This document shows, piece after piece, positions 31,092-58,232 of a stretch of DNA of 64,000 nt. The position numbers and the translations under genes are program-made. Every line of letters begins with the position of its first letter. Position 1 is the stretch's first letter. A model generated the notes under the pieces. The model saw only the letters and a list, made by a program, of their open reading frames with translations, did not search any database and was not told where the DNA came from. The DNA comes from a virus. Where the stretch lies: the IMG/VR virus record IMGVR_UViG_3300017917_004998, positions 32,001 to 96,000 of that record; one strand, 5' to 3'.

Positions 31092-33209
31092 ATGGAAGAA
31101 AATTTGAAAAAATCGCTAGACAATCTATCTGGTGAGATGGGACCTAGTAAGATATCAGCAAGCAGAAGAAGTATGCCAGAAGACGATGACGATGATCTTG
31201 GCGGTGAATTTAAAAATTCTTCATCGAACTCAAAAACACCTGCTCTCGATAACTTTACTCGAGATCTAACCGAGATGGCGATAAAGGGCGAGCTTGATCC
31301 AATCGTTGGCAGAGACGAAGAGATTGAAAGGGTATCACAGATTTTGGCAAGAAGGAAGAAAAACAACCCAGTTCTAATTGGTGAACCTGGTGTTGGTAAA
31401 TCTGCAATTGCTGAAGGACTTGCACTTAGAATTATTCAAAGGAAGGTTTCAAAGAATCTTTTAAACAAGAAAATCCTTACCCTGGATATGGGATCTGTTG
31501 TAGCAGGTACAAAATACAGAGGTCAATTTGAGGAGAGGATCAAGACGATTCTCGACGAACTAAAGAAGAATAAAGATATCATTATCTTCATAGACGAATT
31601 ACATACCATAGTCGGTGCAGGCGGATCATCTGGATCATTGGATGCATCTAATATGTTTAAGCCAGCCTTGGCCAGAGGAGAGATCCAGTGTGTAGGTGCA
31701 ACTACTTTAAACGAATATAGAACAAACATTGAGAAAGACGGTGCACTGGAGCGTAGATTCCAAAAGATCATAGTTGACCCGCCAACACCAGCAGAGACTC
31801 TCACGATCCTCAGAAACATTAAATCAAAATATGAGGATCACCACAATGTTGAATATACAGACGAAGCAATTGAGGTATGCGTCAAGCTCACAGAAAGGTT
31901 TATAACAGATCGCAATTTTCCTGATAAGGCCCTGGATGCTTTGGATGAAGCGGGCAGTAGAGCACAGCTTACTCAGGTTAAAGTTCCAGATAGCCTAATC
32001 AAGCTGGAGCAGAACCTGGAAAAGATCAAAGCAGACAAGAAGGAATCTGTAACAAAACAGGATTATGAAGCTGCAGCTAAATTCAGGGATCTCGAGAGGA
32101 AAGTTAATCTTAGCATTGAGATTGAAACTAAATCATGGGAGCAAAAATTAAAGGAGAAAAGAAAGATTGTTGATGCTGAAAGAGTTGCTGAAGTAGTTTC
32201 AATGATGACCGGGGTTCCTCTAAATAAAGTCACACAGTCAGAAAACCAAAAACTTGCACAGCTTGAAGAAACCCTGAAAGCAGAAGTAATAGGTCAATCT
32301 GTTGCAGTCACCAAAATCTCCAAAGCTATCCTCAGAAATAGACTTGGGTTAAAAGATCCAAACAGACCAATAGGATCGTTTATTTTTATGGGTCCAACTG
32401 GGGTTGGAAAAACAGAGCTTGCGAAGAAACTGGCAGAAAACATATTTGGAGATAGAGATGCTTTAATCCGAATTGATATGTCGGAATACATGGAGAAATT
32501 CAATTCAACCAAATTAATCGGAGCTCCTCCGGGATACGTAGGACACGAAGATGGAGGTCAGTTAACAGAAAAGGTTCGCAGAAAACCATATTCTGTTGTT
32601 CTGTTTGATGAAATTGAAAAAGCACACCCCGACATTTTCAATTCTTTGCTTCAAATATTGGATGAAGGATTTATTACAGATAGCTTAGGTAGAAAGATCA
32701 ACTTTAAGAACTGTTTGATTATTCTAACATCTAATGTTGGACAAAGGAAAGCTTCTGAATTTGGTACAGGCGTTGGTTTTAACTCAGCAGATTCACAACA
32801 AAAAAAGAACGAGGAATCTTCTTCAATTATCAGAAAGGAATTAGCTAAAACATTCTCACCTGAGTTTTTGAATCGTGTTGACGAAGTAATCTATTTCAAT
32901 TCATTAACTAAAGACGATCTGCTTAAAATTATCGAGGTTGAACTTAAAAAGATGTACCCGAGGTTTGAAGAAATAGGATATAAGATTTCCATATCGAAAG
33001 ATCTTAAGGAGAAAATAGCAGAGATTGGGTATGATCCTAAATATGGTGCTAGACCGCTCAAAAGACTTTTGCAGAAATATGTAGAAGATACTATAGCTGA
33101 ATTGGCAATCCAGCAAAAAATTCAGATTGGATCTAAGATTACATTATCACTAGATCCAAAAAAGAATCCAGATGAAGAAAATCCGGTTAAGGTAAAAATA
33201 GTCTTTTAA
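31092..33209 (+). CDS. clpC: ClpC-like Hsp100 ATPase lacking the Clp N-domain
   Basis: Two AAA modules (GEPGVGKS, GPTGVGKT), GTKYRGQFE and GAPPGYVG pore loops, UVR-type M domain QDYEAAAKFRD. Confidence 0.9.
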   Translation: MEENLKKSLDNLSGEMGPSKISASRRSMPEDDDDDLGGEFKNSSSNSKTPALDNFTRDLTEMAIKGELDPIVGRDEEIERVSQILARRKKNNPVLIGEPGVGKSAIAEGLALRIIQRKVSKNLLNKKILTLDMGSVVAGTKYRGQFEERIKTILDELKKNKDIIIFIDELHTIVGAGGSSGSLDASNMFKPALARGEIQCVGATTLNEYRTNIEKDGALERRFQKIIVDPPTPAETLTILRNIKSKYEDHHNVEYTDEAIEVCVKLTERFITDRNFPDKALDALDEAGSRAQLTQVKVPDSLIKLEQNLEKIKADKKESVTKQDYEAAAKFRDLERKVNLSIEIETKSWEQKLKEKRKIVDAERVAEVVSMMTGVPLNKVTQSENQKLAQLEETLKAEVIGQSVAVTKISKAILRNRLGLKDPNRPIGSFIFMGPTGVGKTELAKKLAENIFGDRDALIRIDMSEYMEKFNSTKLIGAPPGYVGHEDGGQLTEKVRRKPYSVVLFDEIEKAHPDIFNSLLQILDEGFITDSLGRKINFKNCLIILTSNVGQRKASEFGTGVGFNSADSQQKKNEESSSIIRKELAKTFSPEFLNRVDEVIYFNSLTKDDLLKIIEVELKKMYPRFEEIGYKISISKDLKEKIAEIGYDPKYGARPLKRLLQKYVEDTIAELAIQQKIQIGSKITLSLDPKKNPDEENPVKVKIVF

Positions 33210-50626: not shown

Positions 50627-50914
50627 ATGGCAAAGACAACTAAGGAATTTTCATTTTTGGATTTAGACAAGGAACTATCAAAAATTACTGGGTTTGAAAC
50701 TGGATCGATTTTAGCAGACAACACTTTTAGTGAGGTTGATGAATGGATCCCAACAGGCAACTATTTATTGAATGCACAATTATCTGGAACCTTATTTGGT
50801 GGGATCCCAAACACAAGATCCCTCGGTTTGATGGGAGATCCAGGGTGTTTACGAAAAACCCAAAAGGTTAGGGTGTATGTATTAAAAACACAAGGTGAGT
50901 CGGATAGGACCTAA
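50627..50914 (+). CDS. uvsX: UvsX/RecA N-terminal piece plus 22-aa split-intein N fragment
   Basis: IPTGNYLLNAQLSG..FGGIP...GLMGDPG then CLRKTQKVRVY (intein Cys1 at 50846). Confidence 0.88.
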   Translation: MAKTTKEFSFLDLDKELSKITGFETGSILADNTFSEVDEWIPTGNYLLNAQLSGTLFGGIPNTRSLGLMGDPGCLRKTQKVRVYVLKTQGESDRT

Positions 50915-50952: not shown

Positions 50953-52137
50953 ATGATGGATAGAATTCAAATAATTGAAGAGCTTAAGGCTTACCCAGAT
51001 TTTTACAGCGATGTTGATCTAGAGAAATTGACAGAATCTGAAATTTCAGAATTGTTCAATAAACACTGTGAGGAATTTTCGGAAGAGATTGAGATTGGGA
51101 CTGTTTTCAATGATATGAAAGCACAAAGAATTCTGGCAGACACCCCAGATGGATGGATCGAAGTTGGTAAATTCGTAAAAAAGACACCAAGGGATATACA
51201 CAGAGTTATTCTAAACGATGGATCTTTAGTTGAAGCTTCGTGCGATCACATGTTTGAAACTTCTAGAGGATGGGTGATGTCTAAAGATCTTCAAGATGAA
51301 GAACTTATCTTAACAAAAAACGGGTTCGTTGGGGTTAAGGAAAATGAAATTATAGCAAACGAAGAAGTTTATGATTGGGAGATCCTACACGAGAATCACC
51401 GATACTGGGTTGGTAATATGTCTTCACACAACACCGGTAAATCTTTCGTTTGCCTGAACGTTGCAAGAGAAGCTCAGAAAAAAGGATATGATGTAATCTA
51501 TTGTGATACCGAGGGAGCGATCGATAAAAGCTCTGCTATTAAATTTGGTATTGATGCTAACAAGGTAAGATATCAGCCAATCAAGACTGTAACTGAATTC
51601 CAGACCTTTGTAGCTAACCTTTTGGAGCTAGTTAAGAAAGCAAAGGCAAACGGAGCTAATCCTAAGATATTGCTGATTCTGGACTCTTTGGGTATGTTAA
51701 GCACTGATAAGGAATTAAGAGATGCGATCGAAGGTAAGAATGCTGCTGACATGGGAGCTAAAGCTAAGGAATTAAGAAAGTTATTCCGTGTTATCACGTT
51801 GGATCTGACTGCTGCTAAGATTCCACTGGTTTGTACGAATCACGTTTACTGTCTTACAGCAGGTCACAAAATCTTAATGTCCGATGACACATATAAAAAC
51901 ATCGAGGATATTGTAGTTGGTGATGTTGTTAAAACATTGGCCGGCGATAGAAACGTTTGTTCGACTTCTGAGTTTGAAGATAAGGAGGTTATTAAATTGA
52001 CTCTTGAAAACGGTCAAACCATCGAGTGCACTCCCAACCATAAATTTTTGGTTGAAAACGAATGGACCAACGAACAATCATGGAAATGCTCCGATGATTT
52101 GGTAGAGGGAGATTACATTTTAAGAACCAGCGAATAA
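50953..52137 (+). CDS. uvsX: UvsX middle piece flanked by intein-1 C fragment (160 aa) and intein-2 N fragment (95 aa)
   Basis: SCDH, VYD, SHN|TGKS completes Walker A; YCDTE, LILDSLG; NHVY|CLTAGHKI...CTPNH. Confidence 0.9.
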   Translation: MMDRIQIIEELKAYPDFYSDVDLEKLTESEISELFNKHCEEFSEEIEIGTVFNDMKAQRILADTPDGWIEVGKFVKKTPRDIHRVILNDGSLVEASCDHMFETSRGWVMSKDLQDEELILTKNGFVGVKENEIIANEEVYDWEILHENHRYWVGNMSSHNTGKSFVCLNVAREAQKKGYDVIYCDTEGAIDKSSAIKFGIDANKVRYQPIKTVTEFQTFVANLLELVKKAKANGANPKILLILDSLGMLSTDKELRDAIEGKNAADMGAKAKELRKLFRVITLDLTAAKIPLVCTNHVYCLTAGHKILMSDDTYKNIEDIVVGDVVKTLAGDRNVCSTSEFEDKEVIKLTLENGQTIECTPNHKFLVENEWTNEQSWKCSDDLVEGDYILRTSE

Positions 52138-52210
52138 TTAAACCGATTGATGTGGTATATGCACACAAAAGCATATACCATGTTTTCTGTAGAATAACTA
52201 ATATAAAATC

Positions 52211-52861
52211 ATGAAAAAAATAAAGATAATCAAAAAAGAAGTACTAGAGGAAAGAAAGAAAGTTTATGACGTAACTGTAGAGGGAGCACATCATTATTTC
52301 CTAGAAAATGGAGTAATCTCTCATAATACAGGGAGTGGATATATGCCAACTAAAGAATCTTCAGGTGGTGACGGACCTATTTTTGCAATGTCTGTAATCT
52401 CTTTCCTTTCTAAAGCACAGTTAAAAGAAGGTAATAGCACAACTAAGACTGGTATCGTTGTTACATCAAATCTTAAGAAAAGCAGATTCACAATCCCAGA
52501 GCCTGTTAAGTTTCACATCTCATTCCTAAACGGTATGAACCCTTATGTTGGTTTGCAAGATTTCGTTTCTTGGGAAGCTTGCGGAATTGGCAAAGGAAAG
52601 TTTGAAGAAGTGAAAAACGAAAGCGGAGTCAAAGAAACTGTCTTTATACCAAGCGAAAGTGCACAAGCCAGATGGGCGGTTAAACACTTGGGAAAAACTA
52701 TTACGTCATCACAGCTATTCACACCTGAAGTTTTCACCGATGAGGTTCTCAGACAACTTGACGAGAATGTTATTAAGAAGCATTTCATATTGCCAACAAT
52801 GGGAAACAATGATGAGATTGCAAACGCTTTGGAAGCTGATTTAGAAGATGAACAGGAATAA
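52211..52861 (+). CDS. uvsX: 39-aa intein-2 C fragment plus UvsX C-terminal piece
   Basis: VYDVTVEGAHHYFLENGVISHN|TGSGY..SSGG, KSRF, GMNPY.GL. Confidence 0.9.
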   Translation: MKKIKIIKKEVLEERKKVYDVTVEGAHHYFLENGVISHNTGSGYMPTKESSGGDGPIFAMSVISFLSKAQLKEGNSTTKTGIVVTSNLKKSRFTIPEPVKFHISFLNGMNPYVGLQDFVSWEACGIGKGKFEEVKNESGVKETVFIPSESAQARWAVKHLGKTITSSQLFTPEVFTDEVLRQLDENVIKKHFILPTMGNNDEIANALEADLEDEQE

Positions 52862-54463: not shown

Positions 54464-54955
54464 ATGGAAGAAGAAATTGACAATAATATCGAAGAGAATG
54501 TAGACTCTGGTGGTGAAAAAAAACAGCAACTTGGAGACAAGATCTTTGGTGCACACAACAATCCAACATCAGACAACGACTTCAGAGAGAACTTTGAACT
54601 TGATACGCAGCACAAATTTCTGGAGGATAGCTTTGATGAGGAAGAGTATTTGCATAGAAAAAAATTAGAGGAAACTGTTTTTGCAGCATTCCAAAGCTCT
54701 AGGTGGTATCCACTGTCTTACAAAAAGAAGATACCAAAAGATCTAATACCTCATTTGTTTCAGGATGTGCTTGAGAAACTTGAGGACACTGAATTTGGAT
54801 TCTCTGAGAAATTTGTAGTCATCTGTGATTTTGTTTCCATTCCGTATACGAAGGCGTACGAGCTAATCCCTGCCAAATACAAGGAAATAATTATTAACGA
54901 GCTAGAAATAAAGTTTGGCATTCTTTCGCGTAGAAAGATTAAAAGATTATTTTGA
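54464..54955 (+). CDS. acidic hypothetical protein
   Basis: ATG at 54464; between helicase and gp47. Confidence 0.7.
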   Translation: MEEEIDNNIEENVDSGGEKKQQLGDKIFGAHNNPTSDNDFRENFELDTQHKFLEDSFDEEEYLHRKKLEETVFAAFQSSRWYPLSYKKKIPKDLIPHLFQDVLEKLEDTEFGFSEKFVVICDFVSIPYTKAYELIPAKYKEIIINELEIKFGILSRRKIKRLF

Positions 54956-56073
54956 TGGAATCTGTTTTTCCTAGCATAAAAAACGAAAAAGCAAAGAGAG
55001 TATGGTTAATAACCGATACCCATTTGGGCGTAAAAAATAGCTCAAATGAATGGATAGAAATCATCGATACCTATTTCAAGGATTTCTTTTTTCCACTGGT
55101 TAAAAAGCACTACAGACCTGGGGATGTTCTTATCCACTTAGGTGATTGGTACGATTCTAGACAGAGCGTCAATCTAAGAGTATTAAATCTAGGTGTTGAG
55201 ATTGCAGAGAAGATGTCGCTCACGTTTCCAGATGGCATTTGGATTCTAATCGGCAACCATGACATATTTGGGAAAAACACAAACGATGTGAATTCGTTAA
55301 AAAGCATCAAATGGATTCCTTCTATTACAATTTGCGAAGAACCTGCCAGCATCCAATTGGGAGAAAAGTCATTCTTTATGATGCCATGGAGAAAAGACTC
55401 AGAGACCGAAGAGTCCTGCTTGGATAGTGCAGAATACCACGACTATCTTTGTTGTCACTCTGATATCAGAGGACTTAAGTTTAACAGGTACGTGAACGTT
55501 GAGCACGGCTCAGATTCAACTAAGTTTAGAAAATTTGGCAGGGTTTATTCCGGACACATTCATTATGCACAAGAGTCTGGAAATATAAAAATGCTTGGCT
55601 CACCTTATGAGCTAACTAGATCTGATATGGACAATCCGAAGGGTATTACTCTTTTGGATTTAGAAACCGGGCAAGAAACGTTCTTTGAAAATGATATTTC
55701 TCCGAAGTTCAAAAGATATCAGTTTGAAGAAATTCTAGAGAAAACCATAGATGATGTCAATTCAGATTTCGAGAACAACTTTGTTGATATCATGATAGAT
55801 CCAAGAATGGCTTTAAAGGCACCACTGAACATTCTAACGGACTCTATAGTAAATCCAAGAAAGATATCTTTCCATCCCTACGATCCTAATCAGGCTTCTT
55901 CGCTAGAGGAAAGAATGAGATCTACCGACGAGAGACAATTCGATGTGCTTGACTTCATCGAGGAATATGTCTCACAGATGGATCATGACAAGGAAACCAG
56001 AGATAGAATACTTTCAACAATCAATAAATTGCATTCAATTGTAATTACACAGGATCAGGACAAAAAGATATGA
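54952..56073 (+). CDS. T4 gp47-like (Mre11/SbcD) nuclease subunit
   Basis: ITDTHLG, LGDWYD, GNHD, SGHIH. Confidence 0.92.
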   Translation: MMESVFPSIKNEKAKRVWLITDTHLGVKNSSNEWIEIIDTYFKDFFFPLVKKHYRPGDVLIHLGDWYDSRQSVNLRVLNLGVEIAEKMSLTFPDGIWILIGNHDIFGKNTNDVNSLKSIKWIPSITICEEPASIQLGEKSFFMMPWRKDSETEESCLDSAEYHDYLCCHSDIRGLKFNRYVNVEHGSDSTKFRKFGRVYSGHIHYAQESGNIKMLGSPYELTRSDMDNPKGITLLDLETGQETFFENDISPKFKRYQFEEILEKTIDDVNSDFENNFVDIMIDPRMALKAPLNILTDSIVNPRKISFHPYDPNQASSLEERMRSTDERQFDVLDFIEEYVSQMDHDKETRDRILSTINKLHSIVITQDQDKKI

Positions 56074-56264
56074 AAATAACAAAAATTGAGTGGAGAAATT
56101 TTTCCTCTTACGGAAACAGAACCCAGGAATTAAATCTGGGTAATGAATCAAGTCTATTTCAGATAAACGGAGAAAATGGTACGGGTAAGTGTCTTTATCC
56201 CGATACAATTCTAAAAGTTAAGGTATCCAAAGAAACTTTAGCCAAAATAAACAACTTACGTTAA
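56070..56264 (+). CDS. gp46 (Rad50/SbcC) N-terminal piece plus 24-aa split-intein N fragment
   Basis: KIEWRNFSSYGN...INGENGTGK then CLYPDTILKV (Cys1 at 56190). Confidence 0.88.
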   Translation: MKITKIEWRNFSSYGNRTQELNLGNESSLFQINGENGTGKCLYPDTILKVKVSKETLAKINNLR

Positions 56265-56312
56265 CCACTTCAGGGAACACCAATATACTTAGAATTTTTT
56301 AAGAACTGACAA

Positions 56313-58232
56313 ATGGAGGAAATTGAAATCACTATTAAGGATCTGCATGATTTTTTAACACTACACCCAGAAGAGAAGGGAAATATTTTAATCGAAGGAA
56401 AGGATGGATGGTGCGAGATTGATGAATCTGCAATCACTGCTCCAGATTCAGTTTTTTACACTATTCGAACTGAGAATGGAAAGGAAGCAAAGTGTTCTCC
56501 TGATCACCAGTTCTATAATGACACCTGGATTAAATGTAAATACCTAAATGTTGGCTATCCAATTCTAACCGATCTTGGATATTCTAAAATAACACATCTG
56601 GAGTTAGAAAAAGAAAAAGCAGACCTTTATGATATTGAAGTGAGAGATTCCCACAATTATTATGGAAATGGAATACTCTCCCACAACTCATCCATCTCGC
56701 ATGCTATTTCGTATGGCCTATATGGAAAGGTTGAAGGAAAAAAACTAAAAGATATACCAAACAGGATCAATGGTAATGCCTGGGTAAGAATAACACTAGA
56801 TCATCTGGGATCTTCCGTTGTAATAGAAAGAGGAATAGATCCGAATCTTTTCAGGCTTTTTATCGATGGCAAGGAGTTTGATCAAGCAGGAAGCAGATCA
56901 CTCCAGGATTATCTTACTGATGATATTCTCGGTATTCCATATTACGTGTTCAACAACACGATATCTCTTTCCATCAACGACTTCAAGAGCTTTATTAAAA
57001 TGACACCTCAGGATAAAAGAGGAATCATAGATAAAATATTCGGATTCCACATCCTGAATCAGATGAGGGAGATCCTTAAATCCGAGACCAAGAAGATAAA
57101 GGAATCACTTGATACACTTTCAGGGAAACTTATTTCACTAGACAGCTCAATCAAGAGCTCTTCAGCCGAAATGGAATCCCTAATTAATGAAATAGAGGAG
57201 GAATCTGTAGCCCTAATCGAAGATCTTACATCTAAGATTACAACATTCGAAAATCTACAAACACTCCACAATCAGAAGATGTCTGAATTCAGAATCGGAG
57301 AAAGTGAGCTAAATCAGAAAACCAGAAACACCAATTCTCTTTTGATAAATGCGCAGTCCAAATTGAGAGATCTGGAGAGAAAGCTAAAACTTTATGATCA
57401 GAACATTTGTCCGACTTGTGAGGGATCCCTGGAAACCGATTTTCACGCCAATATGAAATCGTCTATGTTATCTGAAAAAAAATCTATTGATGACAACATA
57501 GCAGAGATAGAGAAAACGCTAGGAGAACTTAGAATTCTCGAATTAAATTGCGTTACAACCAGAAACGAACTTGTTGAAAAGGGAATGAAAATAAAGAATA
57601 AGCTTGATTCAATCCATCAAGAATTAAAGCTTCTAAAATCTAAAAAGGGAGACAAACAGGCACAGTCTTTACAAAGAATCATAGATTCTCTTACTTCAGA
57701 TCAGGAAAATACAATCTCGATCAAATTCAAAGAGGAAGAAAAACACAATTGGCTTAAAACTATCGACGAAATACTTGGCGAGAAGGGTGTTAAACAGATG
57801 GCGATTAGAACCATTCTACCTTCTCTAAATTCAGAAATTCTAGAGCTTCTGAGAAAGATGAATCTAAGCTACCAGGTAGTTTTTGACGAGGAATTTAATG
57901 CCATGATATATCAGATGGGAATTGAGGTTCCGTCGCAGACATTAAGCACTGGTGAAATGAAAAAAATAGATTTCGTTGTTCTGGTTGCGATTATGAAGCT
58001 TATGAAGCTTAAATTTAGCTCGATAAATCTTCTTTTCCTCGATGAGCTTTTCAGCTCTGTTGATCCAGAAGGTGTTCATTCGATCCTTGGGATTCTCAAA
58101 AATTCCTGCTCTGAACTTGGACTAAATATATTCGTCATTAATCACGCACCTATGCCACATGAGATATTTGATTGGAAAATAGATGTTCAGAAAAAGAACA
58201 ACTTCTCGTCTTTTACACTCGAGAAAATTTAA
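56313..58232 (+). CDS. 125-aa intein C fragment plus gp46 remainder
   Basis: CSPDH, LYDIEV, GILSHN|SSI; CPTC zinc hook; LSTGE signature; FLDELFSSVD. Confidence 0.9.
   Translation: MEEIEITIKDLHDFLTLHPEEKGNILIEGKDGWCEIDESAITAPDSVFYTIRTENGKEAKCSPDHQFYNDTWIKCKYLNVGYPILTDLGYSKITHLELEKEKADLYDIEVRDSHNYYGNGILSHNSSISHAISYGLYGKVEGKKLKDIPNRINGNAWVRITLDHLGSSVVIERGIDPNLFRLFIDGKEFDQAGSRSLQDYLTDDILGIPYYVFNNTISLSINDFKSFIKMTPQDKRGIIDKIFGFHILNQMREILKSETKKIKESLDTLSGKLISLDSSIKSSSAEMESLINEIEEESVALIEDLTSKITTFENLQTLHNQKMSEFRIGESELNQKTRNTNSLLINAQSKLRDLERKLKLYDQNICPTCEGSLETDFHANMKSSMLSEKKSIDDNIAEIEKTLGELRILELNCVTTRNELVEKGMKIKNKLDSIHQELKLLKSKKGDKQAQSLQRIIDSLTSDQENTISIKFKEEEKHNWLKTIDEILGEKGVKQMAIRTILPSLNSEILELLRKMNLSYQVVFDEEFNAMIYQMGIEVPSQTLSTGEMKKIDFVVLVAIMKLMKLKFSSINLLFLDELFSSVDPEGVHSILGILKNSCSELGLNIFVINHAPMPHEIFDWKIDVQKKNNFSSFTLEKI

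Follow-up and report, generated by a model that had tools for sequence, protein, structure and literature searches.

Atypically split inteins are cut near their N-terminus, ahead of block B, with an N-terminal intein part (IntN) of about 15-37 residues (PMC13014065). In two of them, AceL TerL and GOS TerL, the IntN comprises 25 and 37 residues, respectively, and the split lies at the site termed S2, after helix alpha1 (PMC13014065). Among the fractured genes described by Dassa (PMC2677866), a terminase locus carries a C-terminal part of 122 residues that misses only motif N1, and the model proposed for such genes includes loss of the endonuclease, as its step III, at the locus gp41-7. gp46 and SbcC are absent from the host types listed in that study, which reports no more than an SbcD-like gene that has no intein and is fractured by a Vsr-like open reading frame (ORF). 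Here, we describe a Rad50-like gp46 gene from a stretch of 64,000 nucleotides (nt), positions 32,001 to 96,000 of the IMG/VR virus record IMGVR_UViG_3300017917_004998, hereafter the window. With a probability of roughly 0.85, the Walker A loop of this gene is interrupted by a naturally split class 1 intein with an atypical split site, and we infer that its products are trans-spliced and that it descends from a fractured gene. The window is part of a 123-kb record of an uncultured virus, distant from cultured phages, and a blastn search of the locus against cultured phages gave no match. Our literature search found no paper linking a split intein to gp46, SbcC or Rad50, in agreement with an earlier note on this DNA, according to which no split intein is known to have been described in a gp46/SbcC gene.

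The gene is divided between two frames, ORF1 and ORF2 (Table 1), whose coordinates and residue counts, like those of the spacer between them, were as the earlier note had given them when we re-read the sequence. The note had proposed an atypically split intein in the Walker A motif of gp46, and this proposal is upheld by the catalytic residues, the conservation of the split, the signs of purifying selection and a predicted HINT fold resembling that of VidaL. A Cys follows directly on GENGTGK, and this position-1 Cys is invariant in 10 N-fragments. The block B motif reads SPDH, with Ser replacing the Thr of TxxH, and its His is invariant across 22 sequences; the DLYDIEV block and the SHN|S junction (terminal His-Asn, then Ser+1) are invariant among relatives. 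Ser+1 (56688) doubles as the Walker A Ser/Thr of gp46. The locus has the features of a class 1 intein, namely Cys1, the block B His, His-Asn with Ser+1, a predicted HINT fold and a colinear host protein, and ORF2 matches the Pfam family Intein_splicing above the cut-off (E 8e-10). The IntN is short, at 24 residues, and blocks B, F and G all lie within the C-terminal intein part (IntC). The halves are separate genes, divided by a TAA stop, 48 nt of spacer and a new ATG, with start and stop conserved in relatives, as befits a naturally split intein.

The host protein has the hallmarks of T4 gp46, Rad50 and SbcC: Walker A, a CxxC zinc hook, a signature motif, Walker B and a gp47/Mre11 neighbour. 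CPTC is invariant in the gp46 alignment, in which the STGE and DE motifs vary little or not at all. The Pfam matches of ORF1 to the N-termini of SMC_N/AAA_23 and of gp46 to SbcC_Walker_B are weak and below the cut-off. Identity is about 27% to annotated SbcC-like genes of T4-like phages and 35% to the best matches of the protein, which come from metagenomic huge phages. The stop codon of the gp47-like gene overlaps the ATG of ORF1, and in relatives, likewise, a gp47 homologue lies immediately 5' of gp46.

We searched 5.8 billion proteins for homologues. The earlier note had suggested looking for contiguous or split gp46 alleles at this site, and both kinds were found. The 40 and 514 residues of the two exteins add up to 554, the exact length of hundreds of intein-less homologues. 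The N-extein closely matches residues 1-40 of one of these, P0032, and the C-extein is 85% identical to it over 514 residues, without a stop or frameshift; the P-loop reads GENGAGKT in P0032 and GENGTGK|S here. About 20 metagenomic clusters, of 633-643 residues, share this starting point of IntC at intein identities from 83% down to 36-38%, and the N-fragments of P0122, P0123 and L023, from other samples, have 64 residues, a 24-residue IntN and the same stop codon position. Since the joined exteins match the intein-less homologues in length, and the same architecture recurs in independent metagenomes, the split architecture is not due to chance. Between IntC and three relatives, the proportion of nonsynonymous differences (pN) is 0.10-0.19 and that of synonymous differences (pS) 0.74-0.96, with synonymous sites near saturation, and the ratio of nonsynonymous to synonymous substitution rates (dN/dS) of IntN against L023 is 0.26, indicating that both intein halves are under purifying selection, which is strong on IntC. 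The split is genuine and conserved.

According to the earlier note, routine annotation would miss or mislabel the 64-residue gene. In three of four clusters this gene came without a name from its source; the 639-residue gene is called an SbcC ATPase subunit, with no mention of an intein. A single-protein search for related loci yielded mainly intein-less exteins, and viral contigs gave no match to a degenerate pattern of the DNA encoding the GK|CLYPDT junction.

Table 1. Coordinates of the gp46 locus and its neighbour, numbered from the first letter of the window.
Feature	Positions	Strand	Description
ORF1	56070-56264	+	64 residues: 40-residue N-extein and 24-residue IntN, then TAA
gp46 N-extein	56070..56189	+	40 residues; ends with the Walker A residues GENGTGK
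IntN	56190..56261	+	24 residues, starting with Cys1, CLYPDT to NNLR; in the model, one strand and helix alpha1
Stop of N-fragment gene (TAA)	56262..56264	+	Stop position conserved in L023, P0122 and P0123
Spacer between intein halves	56265..56312	+	48 nt
Relic of endonuclease gene 3' end	56289..56309	+	Six codons (LEFFKN) and TGA
ORF2	56313-58232	+	639 residues: IntC, Ser and 513 further extein residues
IntC	56313..56687	+	125 residues; block B SPDH, block F DLYDIEV, block G NGILSHN; Pfam PF14890
gp46 C-extein	56688..58232, stop included	+	514 residues; CxxC zinc hook, signature motif, Walker B
gp47/Mre11-like nuclease gene	54952..56073	+	Pfam Metallophos, E 1.7e-8; context gene

The intein was modelled as a read-through fusion of IntN, spacer and IntC, with both stops read as residues. 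The predicted structure has a mean predicted local distance difference test score (pLDDT) of 89 and a predicted template modelling score of 0.84, and disorder (pLDDT below 50) is confined to the residues encoded by the spacer. VidaL, a natural atypically split intein, is the best match both by structure (6vgv, E 3.6e-11, template modelling score 0.83 on the target) and by sequence in the PDB (E 1e-7). The engineered TerL consensus intein 6dsl is another PDB sequence match (E 2.5e-5), and the top PDB fold matches listed are all inteins or other HINT-type domains. Model residues 19-29, that is IntN residues 14-24, form the first alpha-helix, and the break comes directly after it. In the model, the split site corresponds to S2, as in AceL TerL and GOS TerL, and not to S1, as in VidaL and PolB16 (PMC13014065). 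The resemblance of the predicted fold to solved inteins shows compatibility, not activity.

We investigated the origin of the spacer using relatives of the locus. Searching with a degenerate pattern of the DNA at the IntC end gave 33 loci, and six distinct gp46 loci (L023, L025, L029, L024=L034, L047=L052=L054 and L026) have an ORF of 315-377 residues between the halves, for example at L023:205-1311. The C-terminal domain of this ORF matches DUF559, MTES_1575 and Vsr, which identifies it as a predicted Vsr-like free-standing homing endonuclease of the kind found in fractured genes (PMC2677866). In five of the six loci, the endonuclease stop lies no more than 21 nt 5' of the IntC start (one codon away in L023, L025, L029 and L047), and these endonucleases end in LEFLKN, IDFLKN, LNFLKY, LDFLNN or IKFINN; in L026, the endonuclease ORF overlaps the IntC start. 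Such a gene stands between the halves in all six relatives, whereas the window has a relic of only about 21 nt. The 3' end of its spacer encodes LEFFKN, then TGA, CAA and ATG, and the DNA from about 56288 through the IntC ATG shows near-identity to the 3' end of the endonuclease gene in L023. The spacer is in frame with both ORF1 and ORF2, and the TGA (56307-56309, followed by CAA) is a second in-frame stop. In the earlier note, the presence of two stops was taken to argue against a single-base error; such an error is indeed excluded, but because the end of the spacer matches the endonuclease tail of L023, the second stop is better explained as the old stop codon of the lost gene.

The TerL gene of the same genome, which lies past the end of the window, is also fractured (L055, G000:C1:103363-107007). 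Its N-part ends in RQVGK|C and carries a 44-residue IntN, followed by an intact 370-residue Vsr-like endonuclease gene and then by an IntC with the C-part of TerL. The TerL-locus endonuclease is 34% identical (E 3e-25) to that of the L023 gp46 locus and ends in KCLDYLLI. Given this ending in a related endonuclease, the C-terminal motif belongs to the endonuclease family and not to the gp46 locus, and the window would reflect loss of an endonuclease gene and not an ancestral endonuclease-less state. On this evidence, the window is a probable post-loss derivative of a fractured gene. In L050, of a distant clade, the endonuclease has gone independently, and a larger relic of about 135 nt is kept. 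The first 23 nt of the window spacer (56265-56287) match the endonuclease regions of the relatives no better than shuffled sequence does, and we dropped an endonuclease or leader origin of this 5' half on the same grounds, since its local alignments did not surpass those of shuffles. Deletion through a shared TAGAA microhomology appears possible by eye and is unsupported.

Contiguous alleles were identified as well. In L049, P0016 and L048, a mini-intein occupies this GK|C ... HN|S site without a break. The N-fragment of L025 is extended, ahead of its stop, by residues homologous to the linker in the contiguous intein of L049; insertion of an endonuclease gene into a contiguous intein would be expected to leave such an extension. 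Because contiguous, fractured and endonuclease-less alleles are all seen, a single gene family spans the three stages of the gene-breaking model of 2009, from a contiguous mini-intein through a fractured gene with its endonuclease to a split gene with an endonuclease relic. The C-extein of the window is 85% identical to intein-less alleles, and only 62-63% to alleles whose intein is 78-83% identical to that of the window. This contrast points to an intein that may have arrived horizontally, presumably by homing, with the endonuclease lost afterwards, in an order that we infer. Under this scenario, a contiguous mini-intein would have been invaded by an endonuclease gene, giving a fractured gene; the fractured element would have spread by homing into the gp46 lineage of this phage; and the endonuclease gene would then have been deleted, leaving its tail beside the start codon of IntC.

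For the present-day locus, trans-splicing of the gp46 halves is predicted. The two gene products would associate, and the HINT fold would be completed by the Cys1, strand and helix alpha1 of IntN. Splicing would then join the exteins into a 554-residue gp46 with an intact GENGTGKS P-loop, the P-loop Ser serving as the +1 nucleophile, and the gp46 ATPase would be inactive until spliced.

Some findings weigh against a working split gene with this history. ORF2 has no Shine-Dalgarno (SD) sequence, and any translational coupling to the endonuclease gene is gone. Only about 21-25 nt of the spacer is demonstrably endonuclease-derived, with the 5' half unexplained, and the endonuclease-less spacer comes from one assembled record. 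Gain by homing, as opposed to loss in the intein-less lineage, is read from identity contrasts and not from a rooted tree. The want of an SD, the disappearance of an upstream gene able to couple translation, and the occurrence of the 48-nt spacer in this record only would also fit a decaying pseudogene, in which deletion of the endonuclease harmed expression of the C-half, or splicing was lost, and gp46 is non-functional. However, ORF1 and ORF2 are intact with all catalytic residues present, the sequence just 5' of the IntC ATG is preserved, and the C-extein retains its 85% identity to intact P0032 without interruption. The missing SD is weak evidence, because an SD is present in only 5 of the 56 long ORFs of the window, and we rejected it as an argument against translation of ORF2, as most genes of the window do without one. 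We therefore regard a pseudogene as unlikely.

That the record is a metagenome-assembled virus fragment with an estimated completeness of 52% raises the question of whether the true genome has a contiguous intein or a full endonuclease gene, the spacer being a product of collapsed variants. We consider such an assembly or sequencing artefact very unlikely, since the stop of the N-fragment and the start of IntC recur in independent samples, and about 1.1 kb would need to have been removed while leaving an in-frame relic; moreover, even with the endonuclease in place, the gene would be split and the principal claim would stand. Still further from plausibility, to the point of being negligible, is a single polypeptide made by stop-codon read-through or ribosome bypassing, as at the gap of T4 gene 60, and then spliced in cis. 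ORF1, spacer and ORF2 do share one frame, and the fusion model folds well around a disordered linker, but ribosomes would need to get past two different stops, TAA and TGA, the spacer offers no landing codon to match CGT, the last sense codon, and the other genes of the window translate normally with the standard code. The same halves are kept in relatives where an out-of-frame endonuclease gene of 1.1 kb separates them, although this route is closed to those relatives. Read-through and bypassing were rejected on the strength of the two stops, the missing landing codon and the endonuclease-bearing relatives. A naturally split, atypically divided intein in gp46 remains our preferred reading.

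A GATATATA-like box lies about 5-10 nt 5' of many start codons of the window (e.g. 14137, 14779, 15407 and 7005), and a similar GATATATA-like box is present in the leader of the relatives' endonuclease genes. This box, with the rarity of SD sequences, suggests SD-independent initiation and a possible phage-specific promoter.

A further gene of the window, for a UvsX-like RecA-type recombinase, apparently comprises three ORFs on the plus strand (50627-50914, 50953-52137 and 52211-52861), joined by two split inteins, of which the former has a short IntN after GDPG|C and the latter is split at the usual place; Pfam intein matches fall at 51967-52327 in this region. A more speculative proposal, which we hold to be unlikely, brings these loci together. 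The split in gp46 would have been kept by selection after loss of the endonuclease, with trans-splicing gating the Mre11-Rad50 nuclease post-translationally, since the P-loop exists only once the halves have met and spliced. Splicing could be coordinated with that of split UvsX and TerL, giving three mutually orthogonal short-IntN inteins in one cell, and the IntC gene would use the retained endonuclease tail as its start region.

In other metagenomic phages (L022, L027, L028, L031, L033, L038-L046 and L053), a second SbcC-like ATPase, which is very divergent, carries related inteins in its P-loop (..GGK|C, ..SGK|C). Most are split at the same atypical place, with an IntC starting MKKKIT.., and that of L027 is contiguous. 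This distribution suggests that inteins of this type repeatedly reside in the P-loops of Rad50-like genes. The DNA pattern for the IntC end also caught GC-rich inteins (L035, L036 and L044), with DLYDIEVE..NGIxSHN|T, in an unrelated host protein of other organisms; these are not related to the gp46 locus.

With the Walker A GK|S of gp46/Rad50, the natural atypically split inteins, a small group, gain a host and an insertion site. Such inteins are valued for protein semisynthesis, and an IntN of 24 residues can be made as a peptide. In the gp46 family, the endonuclease was lost twice independently, and there are signs that the intein spread horizontally. The series of alleles provides direct sequence support for the gene-breaking model.

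Compared with known systems, the gp46 intein is close to AceL TerL and GOS TerL, with which it shares a phage origin, a Cys1-dependent class 1 mechanism, a short IntN and a long IntC, and, in its model, a break after the first helix. It differs in that the host is gp46/Rad50-like and not a terminase, that the insertion is at the Walker A GK|S, that identity is low and that splicing is here a prediction. The start of the gp46 IntC aligns near that of VidaL (6vgv/6vgw), to which the intein is about 23% identical; however, the S1 cut of VidaL immediately follows strand beta2 and gives an IntN of 16 residues (PMC13014065), whereas the 24-residue IntN of gp46 adds helix alpha1. The intein-less gp46/SbcC alleles of 554 residues, such as P0032, have the length of the predicted splice product and a GENGAGKT P-loop, and lack an intein. 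The relatives of the gp46 locus have the same order as the fractured genes of Dassa (PMC2677866), namely N-half, Vsr-like/DUF559 endonuclease gene and C-half, and the window corresponds to step III, endonuclease loss, here with a recognisable relic. All but one of the inteins in that study break at the canonical site (PMC2677866), whereas that of gp46 is atypically split. Atypical split sites, Vsr-like endonucleases and endonuclease loss were already known; gp46/Rad50 is new as a host.

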